From assembly GCF_003790525.1 (NCBI RefSeq), contig NZ_CP033635.1: a stretch of DNA of 64,000 nucleotides; one strand, written 5' to 3'. Below are positions 12,295 through 57,375 of this stretch, one piece after another. The notes under the pieces were generated by a model. It did no database searches and had not been told where the DNA came from. It saw nothing but the letters and a program-made list of their open reading frames with translations. A program made the position numbers and the translations under genes. The stretch is from Escherichia coli. Lineage in GTDB: Bacteria > Pseudomonadota > Gammaproteobacteria > Enterobacterales > Enterobacteriaceae. The stretch's first letter is position 1. Each line of letters opens with the position of its first letter.

Positions 12295-12336
12295 TAAACC
12301 TGTGGCGATTCAGTCTATTAAACCTGTGGCGATTCA
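12295..12336 (+). repeat. tandem direct repeat (2 x 18 bp TAAACCTGTGGCGATTCA, 24-bp period) upstream of hsdM
   Basis: Read directly from sequence at 12295-12312 and 12319-12336; possible operator/regulatory site. Confidence 0.6.
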
Positions 12337-12497
12337 CTTTATGGTGTCATAAACTTAAATCTAGCGCCGGGTAGAACAAGTTAATCGAACGATGTAGCGG
12401 CCATTTAGGCGTTACAGAAAGAACAGAATTTTAAATTTATAGTGAAGCCGTTGCAGCAACTTTGTGGGGTGCAACCAACACTGAACAGGAAAAGAAA

Positions 12498-14921: not shown

Positions 14922-14927
14922 GTCGTT

Positions 14928-16238
14928 ATGATGAAGATTTCTGAAATGCCGAAATATGACGATTATGTAGATTCTGGGGTTGAATGGTTGGGACGAGTAC
15001 CTGCTTCTTGGGAATTAACACGATTAGGCACTCGCTTTAATGAGCGTAGATCTAAAGTTTCAGACATTGACTACCCCGCACTCTCCGTAACAAAAAAAGG
15101 CGTTCTACCTCAATTAGATAATGCGGCCAAAACAAAAGATGGCGATAACAGAAAGCTAGTAAAAGAGGGTGACTTTGTTATAAATAGCCGCTCTGATCGG
15201 AAAGGTTCTAGTGGAGTATCTGACAGAGATGGATCAGTATCGCTTATAAATATAGTGCTTAAACCAAAAGGGATTCATCCAAAGTTTTCTGAGCATCTTT
15301 TGAAAAGTCATGCATTTATTGAGGAATACTATCGTGTTGGACGTGGAATTGTCGCAGATTTGTGGACTACTCGATACGATGAAATGCGGACGATTACTAT
15401 ATCTGTTCCTTCACTAGAAGAGCAAACCCGTATCGCCAACTTCCTAGACAAGAAAACCGCTCTAATCGACGAAGCGATTTCGATCAAAGAAAAGCAAATT
15501 AATCTGTTAAAAGAACATAAGCAGATCATCATCCAACAGGCGGTGACCCAAGGGCTTGATCCCAATGTGCCAATGAAAGACTCCGGTGTGGATTGGATTG
15601 GAGATATTCCAGAGCATTGGGAAGTTGTGCCTCTAAAAAGGTTGGCGGTCTTGAGCCCTTCTGTGAAAGTTTCAAATAGAAAGTCCAAAGAATTAGTTAC
15701 TTTCTTAGCGATGGAAAAGGTTTCAACAGATGGATTTATTGATCAAGATACATTAATGCCTATATGTGATGTGAGCCAAGGTTTTACGGTTTTTAACCGG
15801 GGGGATGTGATTGTTGCAAAAATTACACCTTGCTTTGAAAATGGGAAATCTGCTTGGCTTAACAATCTTCAAACTGAGTTTGGATACGGCTCAACCGAGT
15901 TTCACGTTTTAAGATGTGGTCAGAGAATTATAGGAAGTTTTCTCTACTTAATCGTTAGTTCGCCCCTTTTTCTTAATGCCGGTGAGGCTATGATGACTGG
16001 TTCAGCTGGTCAGAAGCGCGTGCCTAGTTCATTTATCCAAAACTTTCCTACCGCAATTCCCGGAGTTGCAGAGCAAGAAAAAATAGTATCAAAGGTAAAA
16101 GAGCTGTTTTCACAGATTGATGTTGTTGTGGCTTCTACGGTAAATCAAATCGAAAAGCTCAAAGAATACAAAACCACCCTGATCAACAGCGCCGTGACAG
16201 GAAAAATAAAAATCACCCCAGAAATGGTTGAGCAATAG
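14928..16238 (+). CDS. hsdS: Type I restriction-modification system, specificity subunit HsdS
   Basis: 436 aa, two-TRD architecture with conserved central and C-terminal helical regions; 6-bp gap after hsdM. Confidence 0.8.
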   Translation: MMKISEMPKYDDYVDSGVEWLGRVPASWELTRLGTRFNERRSKVSDIDYPALSVTKKGVLPQLDNAAKTKDGDNRKLVKEGDFVINSRSDRKGSSGVSDRDGSVSLINIVLKPKGIHPKFSEHLLKSHAFIEEYYRVGRGIVADLWTTRYDEMRTITISVPSLEEQTRIANFLDKKTALIDEAISIKEKQINLLKEHKQIIIQQAVTQGLDPNVPMKDSGVDWIGDIPEHWEVVPLKRLAVLSPSVKVSNRKSKELVTFLAMEKVSTDGFIDQDTLMPICDVSQGFTVFNRGDVIVAKITPCFENGKSAWLNNLQTEFGYGSTEFHVLRCGQRIIGSFLYLIVSSPLFLNAGEAMMTGSAGQKRVPSSFIQNFPTAIPGVAEQEKIVSKVKELFSQIDVVVASTVNQIEKLKEYKTTLINSAVTGKIKITPEMVEQ

Positions 16239-16247
16239 GAAGCGAAT

Positions 16248-17411
16248 ATGTTCACGGTAAATTATCAGACCAACAGGATTAGTCCGGTTAAGACGAAGAG
16301 ATTCAGTGAGTTGGGCTTTACTGAGCGCAAAAATCTTCAGGAATGGTTGGCACACGAGCCTTCCGCACTGGGTGAAGAGCTGCTGATTATTCAAAAAGAG
16401 TTCGATGGCTTTGATGACACCCGTGAACGCTTAGATTTACTGGCACTGGATAAAGATGGCAACTTGGTCATTATTGAAAACAAGCTGGACGATAGTGGCC
16501 GCGATGTGGTGTGGCAGGCGCTTAAATATGCCTCCTACTGCGCAAGTTTAACCAAAGCGCAAATCGTTGAAATTTACCAGCAGTACTTAGACCGCTATGA
16601 GCCTGTAACAGGAGAGGTTGACTTGTTTAATACCCCTGCAAGTGCCTCTGCTAGAATATGTGAGTTTTTGGATGCGCCCGATCTCGATGAGTTAAAGCTC
16701 AACCTGGGTAACAGCCAGCGCATTATGTTAGTTGCGGCAAACTTTCGCAAAGAAGTGACCAGCACCGCGCTGTGGTTATTGGGTCAAGGCATTAGCATTG
16801 CCTGCTTCAAAATCACGCCTTATTCACTGGGTGAACAGCTACTGATTAATATTGACCAGATCATTCCAACGCCAGAAGCGAAAGAGTTGATGATCGGCAT
16901 TAATGCCAAGGAAGCGGAAGAAAAAACCACCGAAGTGGTACTAAAAAACCGCCATACCGTGCGTCGCGAGTACTGGGAGCGTGCCTTAGAGGCGTTTCAG
17001 AAAAGCTCTTGCCAACTCTATAACAACATTAGCCCAAGCAAAGATCATTGGTTATCAGCAGGCTCAGGGCTAAGTGGATGTCCGTATAACCTGATATTTC
17101 TGCAAAAAGAGCTTCGAGTAGAGCTTTGGATCAGCCGTGGGGTTACCGAAGAGAATAAATACCTTTTTGATTTGTTGAGTCAGTCCAAACAAGACATTGA
17201 GCATACTTTTGGTGCAGAACTTGAGTGGATGAGGCTGGATGAGAAGAAATCTTGCCGTATCCAGTTTTCGACCAAAGCTGACGGGTTTAACAAAGAGACT
17301 TGGCCCCAAGCGGTTGCGTGGCACTTAGAGCAGATGACAAAGTTAGAAAAAGCCTTAAAAGGACCGCTGCAAAAAGCGGCTGAGGCAATGAAACAGAAGA
17401 ATTTTGATTAA
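16248..17411 (+). CDS. uncharacterised protein embedded in the Type I R-M operon; N-terminal RecB-like PD-(D/E)xK nuclease signature, C-terminal region of unknown function
   Basis: 387 aa; motifs D63, E77-x-K79 (VIIENK), Q90-x3-Y94; no Walker A; RBS AGGAAG; 9 nt after hsdS stop, 14 nt before hsdR start. Confidence 0.55.
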   Translation: MFTVNYQTNRISPVKTKRFSELGFTERKNLQEWLAHEPSALGEELLIIQKEFDGFDDTRERLDLLALDKDGNLVIIENKLDDSGRDVVWQALKYASYCASLTKAQIVEIYQQYLDRYEPVTGEVDLFNTPASASARICEFLDAPDLDELKLNLGNSQRIMLVAANFRKEVTSTALWLLGQGISIACFKITPYSLGEQLLINIDQIIPTPEAKELMIGINAKEAEEKTTEVVLKNRHTVRREYWERALEAFQKSSCQLYNNISPSKDHWLSAGSGLSGCPYNLIFLQKELRVELWISRGVTEENKYLFDLLSQSKQDIEHTFGAELEWMRLDEKKSCRIQFSTKADGFNKETWPQAVAWHLEQMTKLEKALKGPLQKAAEAMKQKNFD

Positions 17412-17425
17412 GGGAATTTACAATT

Positions 17426-20400
17426 ATGGTCAGTCAAACCAATGAACAAGCATTAGAGTCGGCCATTGAGAAATGTCTGGCTGGGATCAGTACTGAAGAG
17501 CTTAAAGAGGGACTGAGTCAGCAGTCACTGGGTGCTGGATACTTCATTGGTGCTGCTAGTGACTTTAATATGCAATATGCCATTGATGAACGTTTTTTCT
17601 GGCAATTTCTGCAAAAGACACAAGAAGTAGAGTTGGCCAAACTGCAAAAGAACAACCCCTCAGATTGGCAACGTAAGTTACTCGAACGATTTGACCGACT
17701 GATTAAGAAGCATGGCATTCTTCATTTACTTAAGAAAGGGCTAAGCGTAGACGATGCTCATTTCAATTTGCTCTATCCAGCCCCTTTGGCAAGTAGTAGT
17801 GAGAAGGTAAAGCAAAACTTTGCAGATAACGTGTTTAGTTGTACTCGCCAAGTGCGCTATTCCATGGTAAATCCCCTACAAGAAATCGACATGGTATTGT
17901 TTATCAACGGAATACCCTTGATAACGCTGGAGTTGAAGAACGCATGGACCGGGCAAACAGCACGTTATCACGGCCAAAAGCAGTATCGAGATGATCGGGA
18001 TGCAACTCAGCCATTGCTGACCTTTGGCCGCTGCCTAGTGCATATGGCGGTCGATACCGACGAAGTGTATATGACCACCAAGTTATCAGGTAGCAGTACA
18101 TTCTTCTTGCCGTTCAATAAAGGTCACAATCTTGGACAAGGCAACCCGCCGAATCCATCTGGCCATAAAACGGCATACCTATGGCAAGAAGTATTCACTA
18201 AAGACAGCTTGGCGAATATTATTCAGCATTTTGTGCGTCTGGATGGGTCAAGCAAAGATCCATTACCAAAGCGAACCCTGTTCTTTCCTCGATACCATCA
18301 ATTGGATGTGGTGAGAAAATTAGTAGACCATGCCGCCCAGCACGGTGTCGGTCAGACTTACTTAATTCAACACTCAGCCGGTTCAGGTAAGTCTAACTCG
18401 ATTACCTGGGCAGCTTATCAGCTAATTGAAACCTATCCTGCTTCGTCTGATGTGGCAGGCGGAAAAAGCTTGGAGCAGCCGTTGTTTGACTCTGTGATTG
18501 TGGTCACCGATAGACGCCTATTGGACAAGCAGCTGCGGGATAACATTAAAGAGTTTTCTGAAGTAAAGAACATTATTGCCCCAGCGAATAAGTCTTCTGA
18601 GCTTAAGCAGGCGCTGGAGAATGGCAAAAAGATTATTATAACGACGATTCAGAAATTCCCGTTCATTATTGATGGTATCGCCGATCTTAGTGACAAGCGC
18701 TTTGCAGTGATCATCGATGAAGCACACAGCTCACAGTCTGGTTCGGCGCATGACAATATGAACCGAGCGATGGGCAAGTCTGAAGTCGAAGAGGCAGAAG
18801 ATGCTCAGGATAAAATCCTTCAGGCGATGAGATCGCGTAAGATGCGCGGGAATGCGTCGTACCTGGCATTTACAGCGACACCAAAAAACAGCACTTTGGA
18901 GAAATTTGGTCAACGCCAAGAAGATGGCTCTTACAAGCCGTTTCACTTGTATTCGATGAAACAAGCCATTGAAGAAGGCTTCATCTTGGATGTGCTGGCA
19001 AATTATACGACGTACAAAAGTTATTATGAGATTGAGAAATCAATTGCTGATAACCCTGAGTTTGATACCAAAAAGGCGCAGAAAAAACTCAGAGCTTATG
19101 TAGAACGAAGCCAGCAAACAATTGATATCAAGGCAGAGATTATGCTGGAGCATTTTGTTCCGCATGTCGTGAATACGAAAAAGCTCAAAGGTAAAGGTAA
19201 AGGAATGGTGGTCACTCAAAATATTGAGGCGGCCATTCGATACTACAAAGCGATAAGGCGAATACTTGAGGAGCAAGGAAACCCGTTTAAAGTTGCCATT
19301 GCTTTCTCAGGAACCAAAGAAGTTGATGGTATTGAATATACCGAAGCAGATATTAATGGTTTTGCCGAGTCAGATACCAAAGATATGTTTGATACCGATG
19401 AGTATCGACTTTTAGTGGTTGCTAACAAGTATCTGACTGGGTTTGACCAGCCTAAGCTTTGCGCCATGTATGTAGATAAGAAGCTCGCCAGTGTCTTGTG
19501 TGTTCAGGCGCTATCTAGGCTCAATCGCAGTGCACCTAAGCTAGGGAAGAAAACAGAAGACTTGTTTATCCTGGATTTTTTCAACTCGGTTGAAGATATT
19601 CAATCAGCATTCGATCCTTTCTATACAGCAACGTCATTGTCCCAAGCTACAGATATAAACGTACTGCACGAGTTGAAAGATGAAATGGACGATGTCGGTG
19701 TGTACGAGTGGTATGAAGTTGAAGACTTTGTGACGCGTTATTTCAAGAATGAAGACGCCCAAACACTCAGTCCAATCATTGATATTGCCGCAGCGCGGTT
19801 TGACCATGAACTAGATCTTGAAGCTGAAGCTAAAGTGGACTTTAAGATTAAAGCCAAACAGTTCGTTAAAATCTATGGGCAGATGGCTTCTATCATGCCT
19901 TATGAAATGGTCAGCTGGGAAAAACTGTTTTGGTTCCTGAAGTTTTTAATACCGAAATTGAAAGTGGAAGATCCCGATGCTGATGCTATTGATGAGCTTC
20001 TCGATTCTGTCGATCTGAGTTCATACGGTTTGCAACGTGTGAAGCTTAACCACAGCATTAAACTTAGTGACCAAGAAGCGGAGCTTGATCCTCAAAATCC
20101 GAACCCACGTGGGGTGCATGGCGGTGAAAAAGAAACTGACCCGCTGGATGAAATCATTCGCACATTTAATGAGCGATGGTTCCAGGGCTGGAGTGCCACA
20201 CCTGAAGAGCAAAAGGTTAAGTTCGTGAACATCGCTGAAAGTATCCGCAATCACCCTGACTTCGAATCGAAATACAAAAACAACCCAGATCCCCATAATC
20301 GAGATTTGGCCTTCGAAAAAATGCTCAAGGAAATCATGCTGCAACGCCGTAAAGATGAACTTGAGCTCTACAAGTTGTTCGCAGGAGATTCAGCATTTAA

Positions 20401-20443
20401 AGCCTCGTGGACGCAAAGTATGCAACGAATGGTAGGTAGGTAG
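17426..20443 (+). CDS. hsdR: Type I restriction enzyme, endonuclease/translocase subunit HsdR
   Basis: 1005 aa; N-terminal PD-(D/E)xK (DMVLFINGIPLITLELK), SF2 helicase motifs GSGKS and DEAH. Confidence 0.85.
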   Translation: MVSQTNEQALESAIEKCLAGISTEELKEGLSQQSLGAGYFIGAASDFNMQYAIDERFFWQFLQKTQEVELAKLQKNNPSDWQRKLLERFDRLIKKHGILHLLKKGLSVDDAHFNLLYPAPLASSSEKVKQNFADNVFSCTRQVRYSMVNPLQEIDMVLFINGIPLITLELKNAWTGQTARYHGQKQYRDDRDATQPLLTFGRCLVHMAVDTDEVYMTTKLSGSSTFFLPFNKGHNLGQGNPPNPSGHKTAYLWQEVFTKDSLANIIQHFVRLDGSSKDPLPKRTLFFPRYHQLDVVRKLVDHAAQHGVGQTYLIQHSAGSGKSNSITWAAYQLIETYPASSDVAGGKSLEQPLFDSVIVVTDRRLLDKQLRDNIKEFSEVKNIIAPANKSSELKQALENGKKIIITTIQKFPFIIDGIADLSDKRFAVIIDEAHSSQSGSAHDNMNRAMGKSEVEEAEDAQDKILQAMRSRKMRGNASYLAFTATPKNSTLEKFGQRQEDGSYKPFHLYSMKQAIEEGFILDVLANYTTYKSYYEIEKSIADNPEFDTKKAQKKLRAYVERSQQTIDIKAEIMLEHFVPHVVNTKKLKGKGKGMVVTQNIEAAIRYYKAIRRILEEQGNPFKVAIAFSGTKEVDGIEYTEADINGFAESDTKDMFDTDEYRLLVVANKYLTGFDQPKLCAMYVDKKLASVLCVQALSRLNRSAPKLGKKTEDLFILDFFNSVEDIQSAFDPFYTATSLSQATDINVLHELKDEMDDVGVYEWYEVEDFVTRYFKNEDAQTLSPIIDIAAARFDHELDLEAEAKVDFKIKAKQFVKIYGQMASIMPYEMVSWEKLFWFLKFLIPKLKVEDPDADAIDELLDSVDLSSYGLQRVKLNHSIKLSDQEAELDPQNPNPRGVHGGEKETDPLDEIIRTFNERWFQGWSATPEEQKVKFVNIAESIRNHPDFESKYKNNPDPHNRDLAFEKMLKEIMLQRRKDELELYKLFAGDSAFKASWTQSMQRMVGR

Positions 20444-20461
20444 GTAGAAAGGAGTGATGGT

Positions 20462-20590
20462 TTGCTGAAGGCAGTCTCAGAGTTATTAGGTGGGTCACCA
20501 GGCCTGAAAGGACGTCAAATTGCCAAGGAGCTGGGGCTGGATAAGTCACAAGTGAACTCGTTTCTTCACAAACACCAGGATACGTTTTGA
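20462..20590 (+). pseudogene. truncated small ORF (winged-HTH-like) downstream of hsdR, ended by the terminal TGA of the IS911 left end
   Basis: RBS AAAGGAG then TTG; encodes LLKAVSELLGGSPGLKGRQIAKELGLDKSQVNSFLHKHQDTF; stop supplied by IS terminus at 20588-20590. Confidence 0.35.
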
Positions 20591-22250: not shown

Positions 22251-22997
22251 AACGGATACGACATATGCTGAAGGAGGAGCAGTAATGGATTAAGTGATAA
22301 CAAATGCCCAGAAATAGAGGTTTAAATCCTGCTTAGTTAGTACATAAATACTATTTTGATGAAAATTATTATATGTCACCTCGGATTTTAATCAGGCGCC
22401 CAGATTAAATCAAGTATTGAGCGCCTGATTATGTTTATTCATTAATATCTGTCATTGATTGTCTTATTATCAGTTACCCCCGTCTTAATCAGAGTTTTCA
22501 TTTATTTTTAATGCATAATCAGATGCCGCCTCATCATTATCCTCAGTATTATCATAGCCGAAAACTTCTCCCGGGCACGGGCGTTCACGATAATAGTCAT
22601 CGTTATAGTTTTCATCGTCAGATAATGATATGTCGTATTCTGAATATGATTCACCACAATTATACATAAAATCATCTCCTTTGGGATTGTTACAATAATT
22701 AGTGAGTTTATTCGAAAAAATAATGAGCGCCAGACCAATCCACCCGACTTTTGATTATAATCATGAAGATACCTGTCTCAGTACAAATAGAATCAAACTC
22801 AATACAGCATGATTCACCTTTATATTCTCTCAGGGAAACCAAATACCACTATTCAACTATTAAGAATAAAATTCTGGAGGTGCGATTATCTGAAGATACC
22901 TGCATCCTAAATAATTTCAGACAGATATTATCTCCGTGAATCCCCCGCCACCTTTCCGGTGCGCGGGGTTTTGTCTTTTTTCACCGGGAATACATGT

Positions 22998-23870
22998 ATG
23001 AATCCGTCTGATGCCATTGAGGCAATTGAAAAACCACTGGCCTCCCTGCCTAATTCGCTTTCCCGCCATATCCTCGAACATCTGCGCAAACTCACCAGCC
23101 ACGAACCCGTGATTGGCATTATGGGTAAAAGCGGGGCCGGTAAATCCTCACTCTGTAATGCACTGTTTCAGGGGGAGGTCACCCCGGTCAGTGATGTTCA
23201 CGCCGGCACCCGGGAAGTGCGGCGCTTCCGTCTGAGTGGCCACGGTCACAGCATGATTATCACTGACCTGCCCGGGGTGGGCGAGAGCCGGGACAGGGAT
23301 GCAGAGTATGAAGCCCTGTACCGTGACATTCTGCCTGAACTTGACCTGGTACTGTGGCTGATTAAAGCCGATGACCGTGCCCTGTCTGTGGATGAGTATT
23401 TCTGGCGACACATCCTGCACCGGGGACATCAGCAGGTGCTGTTTGTGGTGACGCAGGCCGACAAAACGGAGCCCTGCCATGAATGGGATATGGCCGGCAT
23501 TCAGCCTTCTCCCGCACAGGCACAGAACATTCGTGAGAAAACAGATGCGGTATTCCGGCTGTTCCGGCCCGTACATCCGGTTGTGGCCGTATCGGCCCGC
23601 ACCGGCTGGGAACTGGATACGCTGGTCAGTGCGCTCATGACAGCACTTCCCGACCATGCCGCCAGTCCCCTGATGACCCGCCTGCAGGACGAGCTGTGCA
23701 CGGAATCTGTCCGGGGGCAGGCCCGTGAACAGTTTACCGGTGCGGTGGACCGGATATTTGACACGGCGGAGAGCGTCTGTGTTGCCTCTGTGGCTCGTAC
23801 GGTTCTGCGTGCCGTCCGTGACACGGTGGTCTCTGTTGCCCGCGCTGTATGGAACTGGATTTTCTTCTGA
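22998..23870 (+). CDS. island-associated GTPase (YeeP/YkfA/YfjP family)
   Basis: MNPSDAIEAIEKPL... with P-loop GIMGKSGAGKSS. Confidence 0.75.
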   Translation: MNPSDAIEAIEKPLASLPNSLSRHILEHLRKLTSHEPVIGIMGKSGAGKSSLCNALFQGEVTPVSDVHAGTREVRRFRLSGHGHSMIITDLPGVGESRDRDAEYEALYRDILPELDLVLWLIKADDRALSVDEYFWRHILHRGHQQVLFVVTQADKTEPCHEWDMAGIQPSPAQAQNIREKTDAVFRLFRPVHPVVAVSARTGWELDTLVSALMTALPDHAASPLMTRLQDELCTESVRGQAREQFTGAVDRIFDTAESVCVASVARTVLRAVRDTVVSVARAVWNWIFF

Positions 23871-23984: not shown

Positions 23985-24030
23985 AAAACGATCAATAAGA
24001 CAGGTGTCGATCGTTGCCATCGATCGTTTG
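23985..24030 (+). promoter_or_regulatory. antigen 43 phase-variation switch: three clustered Dam GATC sites (OxyR operator region)
   Basis: GATC at 23990, 24009 and 24022, about 220 bp upstream of the flu start codon. Confidence 0.55.
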
Positions 24031-24242
24031 TAGTGGTTAATGGTCTGCGAAAAGGCAGCTGAATCTCTTCATCATGCATAACGGAATTGCACACAACGGA
24101 CTGATACTTCTCTGGCGGATGAGAGAGGGAAAGCATTTATGTCCGGGAAAAACCACTTTATCTGACCATGCTGTTTTGTACCTGCCGGTATCCACTTTTG
24201 TGGGTACCGGCTTTTTTATTCACCCTCTGTAAGGAAAAGCTG

Positions 24243-27089
24243 ATGAAACGACATCTGAACACCAGCTACAGGCTGGTATGGAATCACATTACGGGCACCC
24301 TGGTGGTGGCTTCCGAACTGGCGCGCTCACGGGGAAAACGCACCGGTGTGGCGGTTGCACTGTCTCTTGCTGCTGTCACATCAGTCCCGGCACTGGCTGC
24401 TGACACGGTTGTACAGGCGGGAGAAACCGTGAACGATGGAACACTGACAAATCATGACAACCAGATTGTCTTCGGTACGGCCAACGGAATGACCATCAGT
24501 ACCGGGCTGGAGTATGGGCCGGATAACGAGGCCAATACCGGCGGACAATGGATACAAAATGGCGGTATCGCCAACAACACTACTGTCACCGGTGGTGGTC
24601 TTCAGAGAGTGAATGCCGGAGGAAGCGTTTCAGACACGGTTATCAGTGCCGGAGGCGGACAGAGCCTTCAGGGGCAGGCAGTGAATACCACTCTGAACGG
24701 CGGTGAGCAGTGGGTACATGAAGGCGGGATTGCAACGGGTACCGTCATTAATGAGAAGGGCTGGCAGGCCGTCAAATCCGGCGCAATGGCAACCGACACG
24801 GTTGTGAATACCGGCGCGGAAGGGGGACCGGATGCAGAAAATGGTGATACCGGGCAGTTTGTTCGCGGAAATGCCGTACGCACCACCATCAATAAAAATG
24901 GTCGTCAGATTGTGGCTGCTGAAGGAACGGCAAATACCACTGTGGTTTATGCCGGCGGCGACCAGACTGTACATGGTCACGCACTGGATACCACGCTGAA
25001 TGGGGGGTACCAGTATGTGCACAACGGCGGTACGGCGTCTGGCACTGTTGTAAACAGTGACGGCTGGCAGATTATCAAGGAAGGTGGTCTGGCGGATTTC
25101 ACCATCGTTAACCAGAAAGGCAAACTGCAGGTGAACGCCGGTGGTACAGCCACGAATGTCACCCTGAAGCAGGGAGGCGCACTGGTCACCAGTACGGCGG
25201 CAACCGTCACCGGCAGCAACCGTCTGGGCAATTTCACTGTGGAAAACGGTAATGCTGACGGTGTTGTTCTGGAGTCCGGTGGTCGCCTGGATGTACTGGA
25301 GGGCCATTCAGCCTGGAAAACACTGGTGGATGACGGCGGAACCCTGGCAGTGTCTGCCGGTGGTAAGGCAACAGATGTCACCATGACATCCGGTAGTGCC
25401 CTGATTGCAGACAGTGGTGCCACTGTTGAGGGGACCAATGCCAGCGGTAAGTTCAGTATTGATGGCACATCCGGTCAGGCCAGCGGACTGCTGCTGGAAA
25501 ATGGCGGCAGCTTTACGGTTAATGCCGGAGGACTGGCCAGCAACACCACTGTCGGACATCGTGGAACACTGACGCTGGCTGCCGGGGGAAGTCTGAGTGG
25601 CAGAACACAGCTCAGTAAAGGCGCCAGTATGGTACTGAATGGTGATGTGGTCAGTACCGGCGATATTGTTAACGCAGGAGAGATTCACTTTGATAATCAG
25701 ACGACACAGGAAGCCGCGCTGAGCCGTGCTGTTGCAAAAGGCGACGCCCCGGTAACGTTCCATAAACTGACAACCAGTAACCTCACCGGCCAGGGCGGCA
25801 CCATCAATATGCGTGTTAGCCTTGATGGCAGCAATGCCTCTGACCAGCTGGTGATTAATGGTGGTCAGGCAACCGGCAAAACCTGGCTTGCGTTTACAAA
25901 TGTCGGGAACAGCAACCTCGGTGTGGCAACCACCGGACAGGGTATCCGGGTTGTGGATGCACAGAATGGCGCCACCACAGAAGAAGGTGCGTTTGCCCTG
26001 AGTCGCCCGCTTCAGGCCGGCGCCTTTAACTACACCCTGAACCGTGACAGCGATGAAGACTGGTACCTGCGCAGTGAAAATGCTTATCGTGCTGAAGTCC
26101 CCCTGTATACATCCATGTTGACACAGGCAATGGACTATGACCGGATTCTGGCAGGCTCCCGCAGCCATCAGATCGGTGTAAACGGTGAAAATAACAGCGT
26201 CCGTCTCAGCATTCAGGGCGGTCATCTCGGTCACGATAACAACGGCGGTATTGCCCGTGGAGCCACGCCGGAAAGCAGCGGCAGCTATGGCTTCGTCCGT
26301 CTGGAGGGTGACCTGCTCAGAACAGAGGTTGCCGGTATGTCTCTGACGACAGGGGTGTATGGTGCTGCAGGCCATTCTTCCGTTGATGTTAAGGATGATG
26401 ACGGTTCCCGCGCCGGCACGGTCCGGGATGATGCCGGCAGCCTGGGCGGATACCTGAATCTGACACACACGTCCTCCGGCCTGTGGGCTGACATTGTGGC
26501 ACAGGGAACCCGCCACAGCATGAAAGCGTCATCGGACAATAACGACTTCCGCGCCCGGGGCTGGGGCTGGCTGGGCTCACTGGAAACCGGTCTGCCCTTC
26601 AGTATCACTGACAACCTGATGCTGGAACCACAACTGCAGTATACCTGGCAGGGACTCTCCCTGGATGACGGCCAGGATAACGCCGGTTATGTGAAGTTCG
26701 GGCATGGCAGTGCACAACATGTGCGTGCCGGTTTCCGTCTGGGCAGCCACAACGATATGAGCTTTGGTGAAGGCACCTCATCCCGTGACACCCTGCGCGA
26801 CAGTGCAAAACACAGTGTGAGTGAACTGCCGGTGAACTGGTGGGTACAGCCTTCTGTTATCCGCACCTTCAGCTCCCGGGGTGACATGAGCATGGGTACA
26901 GCTGAAGCCGGCAGTAACATGACGTTCTCACCGTCACAGAATGGCACGTCACTGGACCTGCAGGCCGGACTGGAAGCCCGTGTCCGGGAAAATATCACTC
27001 TGGGCGTTCAGGCCGGTTATGCCCACAGCGTCAGCGGCAACAGCGCTGAAGGCTATAACGGTCAGGCCACGCTGAATGTGACTTTCTGA
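24243..27089 (+). CDS. flu: antigen 43 (Ag43) self-associating autotransporter adhesin
   Basis: Extended autotransporter signal peptide MKRHLNTSYRLVWNHITG..., repetitive beta-helix passenger, C-terminal beta-barrel ending ...ATLNVTF. Confidence 0.85.
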   Translation: MKRHLNTSYRLVWNHITGTLVVASELARSRGKRTGVAVALSLAAVTSVPALAADTVVQAGETVNDGTLTNHDNQIVFGTANGMTISTGLEYGPDNEANTGGQWIQNGGIANNTTVTGGGLQRVNAGGSVSDTVISAGGGQSLQGQAVNTTLNGGEQWVHEGGIATGTVINEKGWQAVKSGAMATDTVVNTGAEGGPDAENGDTGQFVRGNAVRTTINKNGRQIVAAEGTANTTVVYAGGDQTVHGHALDTTLNGGYQYVHNGGTASGTVVNSDGWQIIKEGGLADFTIVNQKGKLQVNAGGTATNVTLKQGGALVTSTAATVTGSNRLGNFTVENGNADGVVLESGGRLDVLEGHSAWKTLVDDGGTLAVSAGGKATDVTMTSGSALIADSGATVEGTNASGKFSIDGTSGQASGLLLENGGSFTVNAGGLASNTTVGHRGTLTLAAGGSLSGRTQLSKGASMVLNGDVVSTGDIVNAGEIHFDNQTTQEAALSRAVAKGDAPVTFHKLTTSNLTGQGGTINMRVSLDGSNASDQLVINGGQATGKTWLAFTNVGNSNLGVATTGQGIRVVDAQNGATTEEGAFALSRPLQAGAFNYTLNRDSDEDWYLRSENAYRAEVPLYTSMLTQAMDYDRILAGSRSHQIGVNGENNSVRLSIQGGHLGHDNNGGIARGATPESSGSYGFVRLEGDLLRTEVAGMSLTTGVYGAAGHSSVDVKDDDGSRAGTVRDDAGSLGGYLNLTHTSSGLWADIVAQGTRHSMKASSDNNDFRARGWGWLGSLETGLPFSITDNLMLEPQLQYTWQGLSLDDGQDNAGYVKFGHGSAQHVRAGFRLGSHNDMSFGEGTSSRDTLRDSAKHSVSELPVNWWVQPSVIRTFSSRGDMSMGTAEAGSNMTFSPSQNGTSLDLQAGLEARVRENITLGVQAGYAHSVSGNSAEGYNGQATLNVTF

Positions 27090-27111
27090 TAATCAGGTCA
27101 CTCCCCTTCAG

Positions 27112-27140
27112 GCCCCGGTCATCATGACCGGGGCTTTTTA
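27112..27140 (+). terminator. rho-independent terminator after flu
   Basis: GCCCCGGTCAT-c-ATGACCGGGGC hairpin followed by TTTTT. Confidence 0.6.
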
Positions 27141-27415
27141 CTTTCAGGGAGCAACAGATATGCCGGGTTGTACATCACGTTTATTGCCGAAGGCTCTTTT
27201 GCTGCCAAATGGCATCTGAATCGTTCACAATTTGGCCGGTTATTGCCCGATCCCGATGGGGTTATTGGGTGATCTCCTTCCATAAAAATACGCAGCTCGC
27301 CAGTGAAGGGCTTCTCAGACAATAAACGTCATTCATTTCGTCCATCAGGCCGCGTCTTCTCCGGGAGACGCGGCTTTTTCATTTATACCGCTAACTCATT
27401 CATAAGGAATAAATC

Positions 27416-28234
27416 ATGCGATTAGCCAGTCGTTTTGGTTATGCGAACCAGATACGCCGTGACCGCCCCTTAACCCGTGAAGAACTGATGCAGGTCGTCC
27501 CCAGCGTATTCGGGGAAGAGAAACACACATCCAGAAGCGAGAACTATACCTGGATCCCCACCATCACCGTGCTGGAAAGCCTGCAGCGGGAAGGCTTCCA
27601 ACCATTCTTCGCCTGCCAGACCCGCGTGCGCGACCCGGGCCGCCGGGGATACACCAAACACATGCTGCGTCTGCGCCGTGACGGGGAGATAAACGGACAA
27701 CATGTCCCTGAAATCATCCTGCTGAACTCCCATGACGGTACCTCCAGCTACCAGATGCTGCCGGGTTACTTCAGGTTCGTCTGCCAGAACGGATGCGTCT
27801 GTGGTCAGTCTCTGGGGGAAGTGCGTGTTCCACACCGGGGAGACGTAGTGGAGAAAGTTATCGAAGGGGCTTACGAGGTGGTGGGGGTTTTTGACCGGAT
27901 TGAGGAGAAGCGTGATGCCATGCAGTCGCTGGTCCTGCCGCCACCGGCACGCCAGGCGCTGGCACAGGCGGCACTGACTTACCGTTATGGTGACGAACAT
28001 CAGCCCGTCACCACTGCTGACATTCTGACACCGCGACGCCGGGAGGATTACGGTAAGGACCTGTGGAGCGCATATCAGACCATCCAGGAGAATATGCTGA
28101 AAGGCGGGATTTCCGGTCGCAGTGCCAGAGGAAAACGTATCCATACCCGTGCCATTCACAGCATCGACACGGACATTAAGCTCAATCGCGCATTGTGGGT
28201 GATGGCAGAAACACTGCTGAAGAGTATGCGCTGA
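27416..28234 (+). CDS. DUF932-family island protein (YfjQ/YafZ-like)
   Basis: 272 aa, recalled similarity to CP4-prophage YfjQ/YafZ proteins. Confidence 0.6.
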   Translation: MRLASRFGYANQIRRDRPLTREELMQVVPSVFGEEKHTSRSENYTWIPTITVLESLQREGFQPFFACQTRVRDPGRRGYTKHMLRLRRDGEINGQHVPEIILLNSHDGTSSYQMLPGYFRFVCQNGCVCGQSLGEVRVPHRGDVVEKVIEGAYEVVGVFDRIEEKRDAMQSLVLPPPARQALAQAALTYRYGDEHQPVTTADILTPRRREDYGKDLWSAYQTIQENMLKGGISGRSARGKRIHTRAIHSIDTDIKLNRALWVMAETLLKSMR

Positions 28235-28324
28235 TGCCTTTTCCCTGAAAGCGCAGTTCTGACTCATGTCCGTCCCTGCCCCGCGACTTCTTCCATTCAT
28301 TTACTTTTTATAAGGAATAATCTC

Positions 28325-28810
28325 ATGACAACCGTTTTGCATAATTCCACCACACCTTCTGTTTCCGTAACCGCTGTATCAGAGAATAACCCGCCTCAAC
28401 TGGTTGCCACCCTCGTCCCTGATGAACAGCGCATCAGCTTCTGGCCGCAGCATTTTGGCCTCATTCCACAGTGGGTGACCCTGGAGCCCCGTGTCTTCGG
28501 CTGGATGGACCGTCTGTGCGAAGACTACTGCGGTGGTATCTGGAATCTGTACACCCTGAACAACGGCGGGGCATTTATGGCACCCGAACCGGATGACGAT
28601 GATGACGAAACATGGGTACTGTTCAGTGCCATGAACGGTAACCGCGCTGAAATGAGCCCCGAAGCCGCCGGCATTGCTGCCTGTCTGATGACGTACAGCC
28701 ATCATGCCTGTCGTACGGAGTGTTATGCCATGACGGTCCATTATTACCGGCTGCGGGATTACGCCCTGCAGCATCCGGAATGCAACGCCATTATGCGCAT
28801 CATTGACTGA
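28325..28810 (+). CDS. antirestriction protein, KlcA/ArdB-like (YfjX/YafX family)
   Basis: 161 aa, characteristic ...WVTLEPRVFGWMDRLCEDYCGGIWNLYTLNNGGAFMAP... Confidence 0.7.
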   Translation: MTTVLHNSTTPSVSVTAVSENNPPQLVATLVPDEQRISFWPQHFGLIPQWVTLEPRVFGWMDRLCEDYCGGIWNLYTLNNGGAFMAPEPDDDDDETWVLFSAMNGNRAEMSPEAAGIAACLMTYSHHACRTECYAMTVHYYRLRDYALQHPECNAIMRIID

Positions 28811-28824
28811 AAGGGGCCGGAACA

Positions 28825-29301
28825 ATGCAACAGCTTTCCTTTCTGCCCGGAGAAATGACAACCAGAGAGCGCAGCCTCATTCAGCGGGCCCTGAAAACCC
28901 TGGACCGCCATCTTCATGAACCCGGCGTGGCCTTCACCTCCACGCATGCGGCACGGGAGTGGCTGATTCTGAACATGGCGGGACTGGAGCGGGAAGAGTT
29001 CCGGGTGCTGTATCTGAACAACCAGAATCAGCTGATTGCCGATGAAACCCTCTTCACCGGCACCATCAACCGCACGGAAGTCCATCCCCGTGAAGTGATT
29101 AAACGCGCCCTGTATCACAATGCCGCTGCTGTGGTGCTGGCACACAATCACCCGTCCGGTGAAGTCACACCCAGCAAGGCAGACCGCCTTATCACGGAAC
29201 GTCTGGTACAGGCACTGGCCCTGGTGGATATCCGGGTACCGGACCATCTGATAGTTGGTGGCAACCAGGTTTTCTCCTTTGCGGAACACGGTCTGCTTTA
29301 A
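28825..29301 (+). CDS. RadC-like JAB-domain protein (YeeS/YkfG family)
   Basis: JAMM motif HNHPSGEVTPSKADRLIT. Confidence 0.8.
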   Translation: MQQLSFLPGEMTTRERSLIQRALKTLDRHLHEPGVAFTSTHAAREWLILNMAGLEREEFRVLYLNNQNQLIADETLFTGTINRTEVHPREVIKRALYHNAAAVVLAHNHPSGEVTPSKADRLITERLVQALALVDIRVPDHLIVGGNQVFSFAEHGLL

Positions 29302-29369
29302 CCCGTCACCGTTACAACCACATCACACCTGTTTTCACTTTTATCTTCTGTCTTCAGAGGTATCCCACT

Positions 29370-29591
29370 ATGAAAATCATCACCCGTGGCGAAGCCATGC
29401 GTATTCATCAACAACATCCTGCATCCCGTCTTTTCCCGTTCTGTACCGGCAAATACCGCTGGCACGGCAGCACTGAAGCGTATACCGGTCGTGAAGTGCA
29501 GGATATTCCCGGTGTGCTGGCCGTGTTTGCTGAACGCCGTAAGGACAGTTTTGGCCCATATGTCCGGTTGATGAGCGTCACCCTGAACTGA
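29370..29591 (+). CDS. DUF987 protein (YeeT/YkfH-like)
   Basis: 73 aa MKIITRGEAMRIHQQHPASRLFPFCTGKYRWHGS... Confidence 0.65.
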   Translation: MKIITRGEAMRIHQQHPASRLFPFCTGKYRWHGSTEAYTGREVQDIPGVLAVFAERRKDSFGPYVRLMSVTLN

Positions 29592-29670
29592 GTCTGGAAG
29601 GGCATTCAGATGAGCAGAATTATCGCCACCACCGGACCATTCTTAACCGATTTTCTGTGAGGACTTTATC

Positions 29671-30039
29671 GTGTCAGACACACTGCCCGGGACAACGCAT
29701 CCCGACAACAACAACGACCGCCCCTGGTGGGGGCTGCCCTGCACCGTGACGCCCTGTTTCGGGGCACGTCTGGTGCAGGAGGGTAACCGGTTGCATTACC
29801 TTACAGACCGCGCCGGTATCAGAGGGCGGTTCAGCGATGCGGATGCGAACCATCTGGACCAGGCCTTTCCGCTGCTGATGAAACAACTGGAACTCATGCT
29901 CACCAGCAGTGAACTGAATCCCCACCGTCAGAATACCGTCACGCTGTATGTTAAAGGGCTGACCTGCCATGCGGACACCCTCGGCAGCTGTGGTTACGTT
30001 TATCTGGCTGTTTATCCGACGCCCGAAATGAAAAATTAA
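29671..30039 (+). CDS. cbeA: type IV TA system antitoxin CbeA (YeeU family)
   Basis: 122 aa [44 protein letters not shown]... Confidence 0.8.
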
Positions 30040-30128
30040 CTCTCCAGAATAGCCTTCTGCTACGGCCTGGTGCTTTCACCACGCCACTTTTCCATTTTTC
30101 ATCTCTGCATATCAGGAAAATCTTCAGT

Positions 30129-30512
30129 ATGAAAACATTACCTGTATTACCCGGGCAGGCGGCCAGTTCACGCCCGTCTCCGGTTGAAATCTGGCAGACA
30201 CTGCTCACCCGACTGCTGGACCAGCACTACGGCCTTACGCTGAATGACACACCGTTCGCCGATGAACGTGTGATTGAGCAGCATATTGAAGCTGGCATTT
30301 CACTGTGTGATGCGGTGAACTTTCTCGTTGAAAAATACGCACTGGTACGTACCGACCAGCCGGGATTCAGCGCCTGTACCCGCTCTCAGTTAATAAACAG
30401 TATTGATATTCTCCGGGCTCGCCGGGCAACCGGCCTGATGACCCGCGACAATTACAGAACGGTAAATAACATTACCCTGGGTAAGCATCAGGAGTCGAAA
30501 CGATGCAACTGA
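30129..30512 (+). CDS. cbtA: type IV TA system toxin CbtA (YeeV family)
   Basis: 127 aa [48 protein letters not shown]... Confidence 0.8.
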
Positions 30513-30991
30513 CCCTGACACTGGAAGCCGACAGCGTTAACGTACAGGCACTGAATATGGGGCGAATTGTCGTTGACATTGATGGTGTTAATCTCGCTGA
30601 ACTGATTAACATGATCTGCGATAACGGCTACTCCCTTCGTGTTGTTGATGAATCTGACCGGACCTCAGCAGACTGCACGCCACCATTTGCTGCCCTTACC
30701 GGCATACGCTGCAGTACCGCACATATCACGGAAACGGACAACACCTGGCTGTACTCGCTGTCGCATCAGACGAATGACACCGGCGAATCAGAATGGATTC
30801 ATTTTACAGGCAGAGGGTATCTGTTACGTACCGATGCTTTGTCGTATCCGGTGCTACACCTTAAACGTCTGGGCCTGTCAAAAACCTTCCGCCGTCTGGT
30901 TGTCACTCTCATCCGGCGTTATGGCGTCAGTCTTATTCATCTGGATGCCAGCGCCGGGTGTCTGCCGGATTTACCCACTTTCGACTGGTAA
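30503..30991 (+). CDS. YeeW-like island protein
   Basis: 162 aa; overlaps cbtA stop; follows cbeA-cbtA as in CP4 prophages. Confidence 0.6.
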
Positions 30992-31002
30992 CCAGAAACA
31001 AC

Positions 31003-31200
31003 ATGAAATCATTAACCACGGAAACAGCGCTGGATATTCTGATTGCGTGGCTGCAGGACAATATCGACTGTGAATCCGGAATTATCTTTGACAACGATGA
31101 GGATAAAACGGATTCGACAGCCCTGTTGTCCTGTATTGAACAGGCCAGGGAGGATATCCGTACCCTGCGCCAACTGCAGCTTCAGCCCCCGAACCGGTGA
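31003..31200 (+). CDS. small hypothetical island protein (65 aa)
   Basis: ORF MKSLTTETALDILIAWLQDN...; no family recognised. Confidence 0.35.
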   Translation: MKSLTTETALDILIAWLQDNIDCESGIIFDNDEDKTDSTALLSCIEQAREDIRTLRQLQLQPPNR

Positions 31201-31296
31201 GTTTCACTCATCATCTCACTCACCAGACTTCATTCCACTGACGCCAGCCTGAACAGGGCTGGCGTTTTCATTTATCTGCAAAAAGGAATATCGATT

Positions 31297-32142
31297 ATGT
31301 CTGATATCACAGCCTCCCGTCCGGAAGTAGTCAACGGGCATACGGACGTTATCTGCTCAACCAGTATCCGCCACATTCTGGCTGTACGAAAAAGTACACT
31401 GCTGCAAATCAACACACTTATCCGGCAACTGGCTGAAATCTCAGCAATGACAGAAAGTATTGGCGGTAAAACCGCACTGGACTGGGCGATGAAACAGGAT
31501 TTTCGCTGTGGCTGCTGGCTCATGGAGAAACCTGAAACGGCAATGAAAGCCATCACACACAATCTCGATCGTGAAATCTGGCGTGACTTGATGCAACGTT
31601 CCGGGATGCTTTCCTTAATGGATGCACAGGCCCGTGAGACATGGTACCGGTCACTGGAGTACGATAATTTTCCGGAAATCAGCGAAGCGAACATCCTGAG
31701 CACATTTGAACAACTGCACCAGAATAAGGATGAGGTGTTTGAGCGAGGGGTGATCAACGTCTTCAGAGGGCTGAACTGGAATTACAAAACCAATTGCCCC
31801 TGTAAATTTGGCAGTAAAATTATCGTCAACAATCTGGTGAGATGGGACCGGTGGGGATTTCATCTTATCACCGGACAACAGGCTGACCGACTCGCCGATC
31901 TGGAAAGAATGTTGCACCTGTTCAGCGGTAAACCAATCCCCGACAATCGGGAAAACATCACTATTCGTCTGGATGAGCACATTCAGTCTGTTCAGGGTAA
32001 AGAGAGCTATGAAGATGAGATGTTCAGCATCAGATACTTTAAGAAGGGCTCCGCGCATATCACATTCAGAAAACCAGAACTGGTTGATCGGCTAAATGAC
32101 ATCATTGCAAAGCGTTATCCGGGACAATTATCAGCCATCTGA
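31297..32142 (+). CDS. hypothetical island protein (281 aa), tRNA-proximal
   Basis: Long clean ORF; no family assignable with confidence. Confidence 0.45.
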   Translation: MSDITASRPEVVNGHTDVICSTSIRHILAVRKSTLLQINTLIRQLAEISAMTESIGGKTALDWAMKQDFRCGCWLMEKPETAMKAITHNLDREIWRDLMQRSGMLSLMDAQARETWYRSLEYDNFPEISEANILSTFEQLHQNKDEVFERGVINVFRGLNWNYKTNCPCKFGSKIIVNNLVRWDRWGFHLITGQQADRLADLERMLHLFSGKPIPDNRENITIRLDEHIQSVQGKESYEDEMFSIRYFKKGSAHITFRKPELVDRLNDIIAKRYPGQLSAI

Positions 32143-32240
32143 GTCAGATGGAAAAAAGCTTACCTGACCCATTACCTGACCCAATTCAAAGGAAAAAGAA
32201 AAAGGGTTAGCTGGTTTATTAGCTAACCCTTTGTTGTGTA

Positions 32241-32316
32241 TGGTGGCCCCTGTTGGGTTTGAACCAACGACCAAGCGATTATGAGTCGCCTGCTCTAACC
32301 ACTGAGCTAAGGGGCC
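32241..32316 (-). tRNA. ileX: tRNA-Ile (anticodon CAU, lysidine-type), island integration site
   Basis: Reverse complement GGCCCCTTAGCTCAGTGGTTAGAGCAGGCGACTCATAATCGC...GGGGCCACCA; adjacent to mug as in E. coli. Confidence 0.85.
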
Positions 32317-32440
32317 ATGGTAGCGGATTATAAAGTAACTCCGTGTCGCAATCCAGCCATTACCGCGCGCCTGCTGTTTTTATAAACAATGTATTTTCAA
32401 TCCGTTATACTTTTCCTGGTGATGTTAGAAAGGAGTAAAT

Positions 32441-53095: not shown

Positions 53096-53174
53096 CCGGA
53101 AAGCGCTTCACAGTTCTCGCGTTGTGCCGGATAGACCTATTGACGCTGTTGTTTTTTCAACCTAAAGTAAAGGA

Positions 53175-53320
53175 ACAAGGGTAAGGGAGGATTTCTCCCC
53201 CCTCTGATGAGTTGTTAGTAAGTCGGGAAACTTAACAGTAACAACACAACCAGTATGATGACGAACTTCATCATAACCCTTTCCTTCTATAAGGCCCCTT
53301 CCTCGGGAGGGGCTTTCCCG
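53175..53320 (+). ncRNA. sibD: Sib-family antisense RNA (antitoxin), copy 1
   Basis: Sigma70-like promoter TTGACG-17bp-TAAAGT at 53140-53168; fully antisense to ibs ORF; hairpin plus U-rich tract about 53293-53322; ends approximate. Confidence 0.5.
53215..53274 (-). CDS. ibsD: Ibs-family 19-aa hydrophobic type I toxin, copy 1
   Basis: Manual minus-strand translation MMKFVIILVVLLLLSFPTY; below ORF-track cut-off. Confidence 0.75.
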   Translation of the reverse strand: MMKFVIILVVLLLLSFPTY

Positions 53321-53550
53321 TTTCAGCCCCTTGCTGACTCCCCGATTGTTGATGAGCGCCAGACCCCGCGCAATGCTTTCTCTTATGCAGTTTTCTCTTC
53401 CCCGAGTCGGCTCGCAAAACGCTGTAACAACCTGATCATTTGTACTTTTTAGCAGAACGCAGATATAAAAAATCCCCGGCTTTTTGGGCCAGGGATATGT
53501 GTTAATGAAACCTTCTTGACGCTGTTGTTTTTTCAACCTAAAGTAAAGGA

Positions 53551-53696
53551 ACAAGGGTGAGGGAGGATTTCTCCCCCCTCTGATTGGCTGTTAATAAGTG
53601 GCGAAACTTACAAGTAACAACACAATCAGTATGATGACGAGCTTCATCATAACCCTTTCCTTCTGTAAGGCCCCTTCCTCGGGAGGGGCTTTCCCG
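53551..53696 (+). ncRNA. sibE: Sib-family antisense RNA (antitoxin), copy 2
   Basis: Same promoter (TTGACG 53516-53521, TAAAGT 53539-53544) and terminator architecture as copy 1; ends approximate. Confidence 0.5.
53591..53650 (-). CDS. ibsE: Ibs-family 19-aa hydrophobic type I toxin, copy 2
   Basis: Manual minus-strand translation MMKLVIILIVLLLVSFATY. Confidence 0.75.
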   Translation of the reverse strand: MMKLVIILIVLLLVSFATY

Positions 53697-57124: not shown

Positions 57125-57375
57125 GAATCCGCTTATTCTCAGGGCGGGGCGAAATTCCCCACCGGCGGTAAATCAACTCAGTTGAAAGCCCGCGAGCGCT
57201 TTGGGTGCGAACTCAAAGGACAGCAGATCCGGTGTAATTCCGGGGCCGACGGTTAGAGTCCGGATGGGAGAGAGTAACGATTCTGTCGGGCATGGACCCG
57301 CTCACGTTATTTTGGCTATATGCCGCCACTCCTAAGACTGCCCTGATTCTGGTAACCATAATTTTAGTAAGGTTT
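57125..57375 (+). ncRNA. FMN riboswitch (RFN element) in ribB leader
   Basis: Conserved aptamer core AGGGCGGGGCGAAATTCCCCACCGGCGGTAAATCAACTCAGTTGAAAGCCCGCGAGCGC...CCGGGGCCGACGGTTAGAGTCCGGATGGGAGAG upstream of ribB. Confidence 0.75.

Follow-up and report, generated by a model that had tools for sequence, protein, structure and literature searches.

The closest described relatives of the gene considered here encode ArdB-type antirestriction proteins of Escherichia coli. The ArdB protein of uropathogenic strain CFT073 (ArdB_CFT) and the K-12 proteins YafX and YfjX allow unmodified phage lambda to plate 10- to 9250-fold better on hosts carrying EcoKI, EcoAI, EcoR124I, or StySBLI (PMC2836571, Table 2). 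These proteins act in vivo on systems of Types IA, IB, IC, and ID and show little or no anti-modification activity (PMC2836571). Their antirestriction is independent of ClpXP, and they neither bind the EcoKI methyltransferase, nor block its assembly, nor inhibit EcoKI in vitro (PMC2836571). The ArdB protein of plasmid R64 acts independently of recognition sequence and also hits Type I systems of Bacillus, and it is inactive against Type III systems and BREX (PMC10149784). In vitro, ArdB partially slows cleavage by EcoR124I and EcoAI (PMC10149784) and effectively prevents cleavage by BlihIA (PMC12429846). The C-terminal Asp of R64 ArdB is reported to be essential for antirestriction and for the non-specific DNA binding of this protein, as seen with the ΔD141 form (PMC13300388, citing Kudryavtseva 2017, 2020).

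KlcA of the IncP-1 plasmid pBP136 (NMR structure 2KMG) and the ArdB proteins of pKM101 and R64 belong to the same Pfam family and fold class and likewise confer antirestriction without anti-modification, but they are encoded by plasmid leading-region or kor-regulated genes rather than by chromosomal island genes. Leading regions of plasmids are enriched in anti-defence genes, which are expressed early in the recipient (PMC11541004). ArdA and T7 Ocr are also small and acidic and also defeat Type I restriction; these proteins, however, are DNA mimics that bind to the core methyltransferase and inhibit modification as well as restriction in vitro, whereas ArdB/KlcA proteins are globular, do not mimic DNA, and spare modification (PMC2836571). 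In K-12, the yfjX gene is part of the yfjXY-ypjJ-yfjZ-ypjF operon, which is repressed by MqsA and is induced by oxidative stress in a subset of cells (PMC10846083).

The DNA analysed here (the window) is a 64,000-nucleotide stretch of E. coli chromosome (contig NZ_CP033635.1). It contains an intact antirestriction gene of this family, embedded in the following series of features:

22959-23870, + strand: YeeP/YfjP-like GTPase gene (Pfam)
24168-27089, + strand: Ag43/Cah autotransporter gene (Pfam)
27347-27376, + strand: GC-rich hairpin followed by a T run, terminator-like, 40 nt before the start of the DUF932 gene and conserved across strains
27416-28234, + strand: DUF932 gene, YfjQ/YafZ homologue (PF06067, 174 bits), directly upstream of the ArdB gene
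28312-28316, + strand: Shine-Dalgarno sequence AAGGA, 8 nt ahead of the ArdB start codon (ATG), read from the sequence and conserved in the strain alignment
28325-28810, + strand: ardB/klcA-family antirestriction gene, an intact ATG-initiated ORF of 161 aa
28825-29301, + strand: RadC-like JAB domain gene, YfjY/LfgB/YeeS homologue (PF04002, 155.6 bits), 14 nt downstream of the ArdB gene
29370-29591, + strand: DUF987 gene, YeeT/YpjJ/YkfH homologue (PF06174, 133.7 bits)
29671-30039, + strand: CbeA/YeeU-family type IV antitoxin gene (PF06154, 175 bits)
30129-30512, + strand: CbtA-family type IV toxin gene (PF06755, 198 bits)
30503-30991, + strand: DUF5983 gene, YeeW-like (PF25638 and PF19419)
31003-31200, + strand: DUF957 gene (ORF; RefSeq annotation of the identical region)
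31297-32142, + strand: DUF4942 gene (PF13708, 231.6 bits), the last gene of the island backbone
32241-32316, - strand: tRNA with anticodon CAT (ARAGORN, Rfam tRNA, and RefSeq; tRNA-Ile, ileX, in RefSeq)

The ORF at 28325-28810 matches the Pfam family PF03230 (‘Antirestrict’) over the whole profile (model positions 1-92 of 92) with E=5.6e-37 and 126.2 bits, the curated cut-off being 25 bits, and it scores 212.6 bits against PHROG 10132 (‘anti-restriction protein’). In the PDB, only two entries were matched, namely 2WJ9 (E=9e-98) and the KlcA structure 2KMG (E=5e-20, full-length alignment). All of these scores are far above chance, and the family assignment made in the sequence-only reading, which had called the gene KlcA/ArdB-like, is confirmed by them. 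An identical protein is present in RefSeq as WP_000214317.1 (‘antirestriction protein’). 2WJ9 was deposited as an ‘intergenic-region protein’; given the near-identical sequence, we take it to be the ArdB protein of CFT073 (PAI II, ORF14, NP_752219).

The protein consists of a variable N-terminal tail (residues 1-24) and a conserved domain (residues 25-161). In the pairwise alignment with 2WJ9, 133 of the 137 residues of this core (97%) are identical, and the identity over all 148 alignable residues is 91%, with most of the differences in the N-terminal tail. The four core differences (L30I, D66N, S101N, and N154S) are conservative, and none of them falls on an invariant column. The CFT073 protein also resembles ours in length class, acidity, and its ...MRIID end, and is likewise encoded on a tRNA-associated E. 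coli island, but it comprises 157 aa rather than 161 aa and differs in the N-terminal ∼24 residues. The identities to the K-12 paralogues are 75% (YfjX) and 69% (YafX), both of which have a shorter N-terminus (152 aa), whereas KlcA of pBP136 and the ArdB proteins of pKM101 and R64 are only about 30-38% identical to ours, with an alignment that nevertheless reaches the C-terminal Asp. This residue (Asp161 in ...MRIID) does not vary when the protein is aligned with YfjX, YafX, and the ArdB protein of an IncF plasmid. The protein is acidic (pI 4.65; 20 D+E versus 8 K+R). It has no sequence relationship to ArdA or Ocr, PF03230 being its sole Pfam match and 2WJ9 and 2KMG its only PDB matches, and this absence of profile or sequence similarity rules out an identity as a DNA mimic of the ArdA/Ocr type.

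The core dN/dS values of the gene, calculated by the Nei-Gojobori method against seven other copies, range from 0.06 to 0.18, whereas the N-terminal tail varies more freely. These values point to a gene kept by purifying selection, and together with the intact ORF they rule out a decaying pseudogene. Three long antisense ORFs that overlie the ArdB, DUF932, and RadC genes have no Pfam match and were dismissed, and no RNA element was found by Rfam within or beside the ArdB gene. No model of NCBIfam or PADLOC matches the ArdB protein; the latter was expected, since PADLOC contains models for defence, not for anti-defence. In every feature that can be checked by sequence, the ORF is thus a bona fide antirestriction protein of the ArdB type (ArdB/KlcA, PF03230), and it is predicted to adopt the ArdB/KlcA globular fold. 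By analogy with ArdB_CFT and its 97%-identical core, this allele would most likely relieve Type I restriction while leaving modification largely intact.

The ArdB gene belongs to the conserved backbone of CP4-like tRNA-associated islands (CP4-6, CP4-57, and CP4-44 type), in which the gene order is GTPase, Ag43, (DUF905), DUF932, ArdB, RadC/JAB, DUF987, CbeA, CbtA, DUF5983, DUF957, and DUF4942. This order recurs in K-12 around yfjX (now lfgA; CP4-57) and yafX (CP4-6), and both K-12 paralogues share the operon neighbours RadC/JAB, DUF987, a YeeU-type antitoxin, and a CbtA-type toxin with the gene in the window; in K-12, however, several other genes lie between the DUF932 gene and the ArdB gene. 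All eight E. coli loci sampled keep the backbone order including the GTPase gene, with Ag43 absent from one of them, and they are located at selC-, serX-, pheV-, and asnT-like integration sites (near yicL, tRNA-Ser/ghrA, tRNA-Phe/yqgA, and the yeeN-sbmC region). In other strains, the hairpin at 27347-27376 follows a DUF905 gene, of which only a remnant is found here. A simple scan of the + strand from 26900 to 32400 detected no consensus sigma-70 promoter. The right-hand boundary of the island is formed by ileX, beyond which mug and rpoD are located, and the window does not reach the left boundary. To look for a tandem island or an internal att site, we searched for another occurrence of the tRNA 3' end and obtained only the tRNA itself.

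Of 5426 complete E. coli genomes, 4939 (∼91%) carry the ArdB gene. It occupies 13795 places in all, nearly all of them chromosomal, and the number of copies per genome has a median of 3 and reaches 13 at most. The 3.3-kb block at 27300-30600 has a similar distribution (4995 of the 5426 genomes, 14560 places). Homologues of DUF905, DUF932, and ArdB all occur in leading regions of conjugative plasmids, and one IncF leading region holds ArdB and DUF905 together with ssb. ArdB homologues at about 30-38% identity were detected in 4649 PLSDB plasmids, 76% of which are conjugative, and DUF932 homologues at 60-64% identity in at least 5000 plasmids (89% conjugative). Nothing in the gene, its product, or its position in the island backbone is new.

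The sole unusual item nearby is a divergent Type I restriction-modification (R-M) cassette with an embedded gene, here called ORFX, which is a separate matter. It comprises the following features:

12267-20540, + strand: Type I R-M cassette, delimited by blastn as the segment shared with a plasmid; outside the ArdB module
12462-14921, + strand: hsdM (Pfam, PADLOC)
14928-16238, + strand: hsdS (Pfam, PADLOC)
16248-17411, + strand: ORFX, a DUF4268/PDC-S11 gene between hsdS and hsdR (Pfam, PADLOC)
17426-20443, + strand: hsdR (Pfam, PADLOC)

The HsdM protein of the cassette comprises 819 aa and has an unassigned extension of about 320 aa at its C-terminus. HsdR has only a distant relationship to characterised families, its best PDB match being EcoR124I (E=4e-12, residues 152-448).

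The hsdM-hsdS-ORFX-hsdR operon (12462-20443) is intact and ends 7.9 kb upstream of the ArdB gene within the same ileX-adjoining insertion, so that a complete Type I operon is indeed present, as had been proposed, about 8 kb away on the same island. This operon was found in only 63 of the 5426 complete E. coli genomes, and 23 of its 65 places are on plasmids; the whole 24-kb arrangement is present in 28 genomes at ≥80% coverage. On one 113-kb plasmid, the operon is located among dnaE, recA, and cobT-like genes, from which we judge the plasmid to be phage-plasmid-like, and no ArdB gene was found there within 12 kb of the operon. Outside the variable hsdS, the cassette in the window and that on the plasmid are 98.5-99.6% identical, and an IS3/IS911 fragment precedes the cassette in the window but follows it on the plasmid. 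Such a permutation is the hallmark of independent, IS-mediated movement. The cassette copy in the window is flanked by remnants of IS3, IS30, and IS66 and by a group II intron, and its G+C content (41-47%) differs from that of the backbone from the GTPase gene to the CbtA gene (54-58%). No annotated Type I system was found in the flanks of ten other ArdB loci, a small sample biased to close relatives of the query that consisted of eight loci sampled down the identity ranking (20 kb on each side) and the two K-12 loci (less flank). Because the operon is rare, occurs on plasmids, differs in G+C content, and is flanked by IS elements, while ArdB is present in ∼91% of genomes, the operon looks like independently acquired, IS-associated cargo whose co-location with ArdB is incidental. 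The sequence-only reading had regarded offence and counter-offence side by side as informative; given the frequencies of the two loci (91% of genomes for ArdB and 63 of 5426 for the operon), this pairing carries no such information, since offence beside counter-offence is true of most E. coli genomes and is no special feature of this island.

Taken as a whole, the data are best explained by an ArdB-type protein encoded by an establishment gene of the island backbone, with an incidental co-location of the R-M operon (probability roughly 0.85). An interaction between ArdB and the cassette in this island, in which ArdB would serve as an alleviation factor for the establishment of the R-M system or ORFX would respond as a guard to the silencing of HsdR by inhibitors of the ArdB type, is very unlikely. 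In the former version, ArdB would alleviate restriction so that the Type I system transferred along with it could become established in a naive host without cutting the unmethylated chromosome. The phenotype of the homologues, in which restriction is blocked and modification spared, is what such a role would need, and at least 28 genomes have the ArdB and R-M loci in a co-linear arrangement. However, about 4900 genomes hold the ArdB module without the R-M operon found here, the cassette travels on plasmids without ArdB, IS remnants and a jump in G+C content lie between the ArdB module and the operon, and Type I systems possess restriction-alleviation routes of their own (PMC11109961), all of which makes functional coupling highly improbable.

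The latter version seems to us hardly credible; in it, ORFX would be a guard of the PrrC kind, detecting ArdB and other antirestriction proteins and setting off a nuclease response. PrrC/Stp is a precedent for a guard that resides in a Type I operon and is triggered by antirestriction. ORFX, which encodes 387 aa, lies inside the operon and always moves along with it, and it matches the catalogued defence candidate PDC-S11 of PADLOC from end to end (603 bits). One stretch of the ORFX sequence, ...ERLDLLALDKDGNLVIIENK..., also contains D63...E77-x-K79, a plausible D...ExK nuclease motif of the PD-(D/E)xK-like kind, and its N-terminus gave matches to PD-(D/E)xK and NucS, both sub-threshold. Yet the architecture of PrrC, an N-terminal NTPase (ATPase) joined to a C-terminal anticodon-nuclease domain, was not found in ORFX. 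The sole domain above threshold in Pfam is DUF4268 (residues 238-372), which has been reported fused to GmrSD Type IV enzymes (PMC4619093) and in the antiphage proteins MdgA and MdgB, where it was suggested to be a substrate-recognition motif (bioRxiv 10.1101/2025.02.28.640651); this association with GmrSD-type and other modification-dependent nucleases speaks for a Type IV-like backup. A sequence search of the PDB returned no relatives of ORFX, and a single-sequence AlphaFold2 model (mean pLDDT 42.9, pTM 0.32) was too poor for a fold search. Moreover, with ArdB in about 91% of E. coli genomes, most hosts of such a guard would also contain its trigger. That ArdB lies nearby had been taken to bear on ORFX as an antirestriction sensor, but this is uninformative and lends the guard no support, because the module is ubiquitous and ArdB would turn up close to nearly any insertion in a CP4-like island. 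By analogy with other DUF4268 proteins, ORFX is more probably a modification-dependent nuclease serving as a backup to the Type I system than an antirestriction sensor like PrrC.

Two further readings concern the ArdB protein itself, and both are compatible with an antirestriction role. Instead of serving in antirestriction, the resident protein might chiefly modulate transcription by binding DNA non-specifically, or it might belong with the RadC/JAB protease to a stress-response operon. ArdB opened the gcl promoter via DNA binding (PMC13300388), the K-12 yfjXY operon is under the MqsA- and stress-dependent control described above (PMC10846083), and chromosomal copies are under strong purifying selection. 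The promoter effect, however, came with over-expression, and complementation of the lfgA deletion phenotype failed, the phenotype being ascribed to a polar effect on lfgB (PMC10846083), so that a domesticated host role of this kind appears unlikely. Somewhat less likely is the reading that chromosomal ArdB is exported by a conjugative type IV secretion system (T4SS) and protects DNA in recipients. In its favour, a Cre-fusion screen identified YfjX of K-12 as a substrate of the F-plasmid T4SS, but this was a single hit of that screen, and deletion of yfjX left the SOS response of the recipient unchanged (PMC11288057).

If the gene is an establishment gene of the island backbone, as we prefer, ArdB would be made in a cell shortly after the arrival of mobile DNA. 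There it would block the HsdR-dependent step of Type I restriction and leave methylation untouched, so that the M2S1 methyltransferase would stay free, and the incoming DNA would be modified and would survive. The molecular step would most likely be an interference with translocation or cleavage, during which ArdB would probably be bound non-specifically to DNA via a surface that needs the C-terminal Asp. This role on entry is proposed because of the homology to plasmid genes; to our knowledge, CP4-like islands have no transfer machinery of their own. K-12 restricts unmodified phage normally despite its two ArdB genes, both of which are active when cloned, and this suggests that resident copies do not neutralize resident Type I systems. 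The published antirestriction assay used K-12 hosts, with ‘vector alone = 1’ (PMC2836571). Expression of the resident gene is probably weak or confined to a subset of cells, which would leave the Type I systems of the host armed.

The locus thus represents the correct annotation of a gene already named in RefSeq, a near-identical homologue of which has both a crystal structure and an in vivo phenotype, and it offers no easier access to the biochemical mechanism of ArdB/KlcA proteins. ArdB-assisted establishment of the R-M system, or a guard that senses ArdB, would, if true, be a new case of defence and anti-defence logic in one island. The useful outcome here is a negative one: since the ArdB gene is ubiquitous backbone, its presence beside a defence system in E. 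coli is no evidence of an arms-race pairing.

In the window, the space upstream of DUF932 and ArdB, the antirestriction gene of the ileX-associated island (28325-28810, + strand), contains two features:

within 27089-27416, DUF905 gene reduced by an internal deletion to a remnant
27347-27376, conserved hairpin with a T run, 3' of the DUF905 remnant

An intact DUF905 gene precedes DUF932 in most other strains. With just 40 nt between the conserved hairpin and the start of DUF932, the DUF932-ArdB genes are left without an obvious promoter. The RadC-like JAB domain gene at 28825-29301 (+ strand) is a homologue of YfjY (LfgB). YfjX, a K-12 homologue of ArdB, has been renamed LfgA, without a complemented phenotype (PMC10846083). 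Farther upstream, as in CP4-44 of K-12, an IS102 (IsrC-type) small RNA is located between the GTPase gene and Ag43 (23988-24224; Rfam).

In several closely related strains (e.g. NZ_CP063518.1 and NZ_CP053723.1), the colistin resistance gene mcr-1.1 has been inserted in the same ileX island, adding ~6 kb to it. The tRNA at 32241-32316 was called Met (anticodon CAT) by ARAGORN and tRNA-Ile by RefSeq; such ambiguity is usual for ileX-type tRNAs, in which the CAT anticodon is modified to lysidine. A tandem pair of Sib antitoxin RNAs and an FMN riboswitch 5' of ribB (53140-53665 and 57131-57279) belong to the ordinary core genome.

The Type I restriction-modification cassette includes the following genes:

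12462-14921, hsdM, encoding an unusually long product of 819 aa
16248-17411, + strand, ORFX, located between hsdS and hsdR and matching PDC-S11, which PADLOC lists as a defence candidate (603 bits)

In HsdM, both HsdM_N and N6_Mtase stop near residue 500, and the ~320 C-terminal residues could be assigned to no family, the one match, to DUF6650, being sub-threshold. The top PDB match of HsdR was EcoR124I (E=4e-12), and HsdR is only distantly related to the characterised Type I families. ORFX contains a D63...E77-x-K79 motif near its N-terminus, where PD-(D/E)xK and NucS matches, both sub-threshold, were also obtained, and its C-terminal part is DUF4268; a single-sequence structure model of ORFX was too poor in quality for use. 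Because DUF4268 has been reported in modification-dependent nucleases, namely Type IV GmrSD (PMC4619093) and MdgA/B (bioRxiv 10.1101/2025.02.28.640651), the Type I system may have a Type IV-like partner in ORFX.

An IS3-family element split by a group II intron was found at 9052-11781, with these components:

9052-9168, ALIL frameshift pseudoknot of the interrupted IS3-family element
10333-11691, group II intron reverse transcriptase/maturase ORF
11695-11781, Intron_gpII domain (Rfam)

In related strains, the ltrA copy has an internal stop and is annotated in RefSeq as a pseudogene.

When the cassette region (11782-20540) was compared with that of the plasmid locus L003 (11830-20711), the Type I cassettes were 98.5-99.6% identical. 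The plasmids carrying the near-identical cassette are ~113 kb in size and, given the neighbouring dnaE, recA, and cobT-like genes, phage-plasmid-like. An IS3/IS911 fragment is located upstream of the cassette on the chromosome, whereas it is located downstream on the plasmid; this permuted junction suggests IS-mediated transfer of the Type I cassette between replicons.
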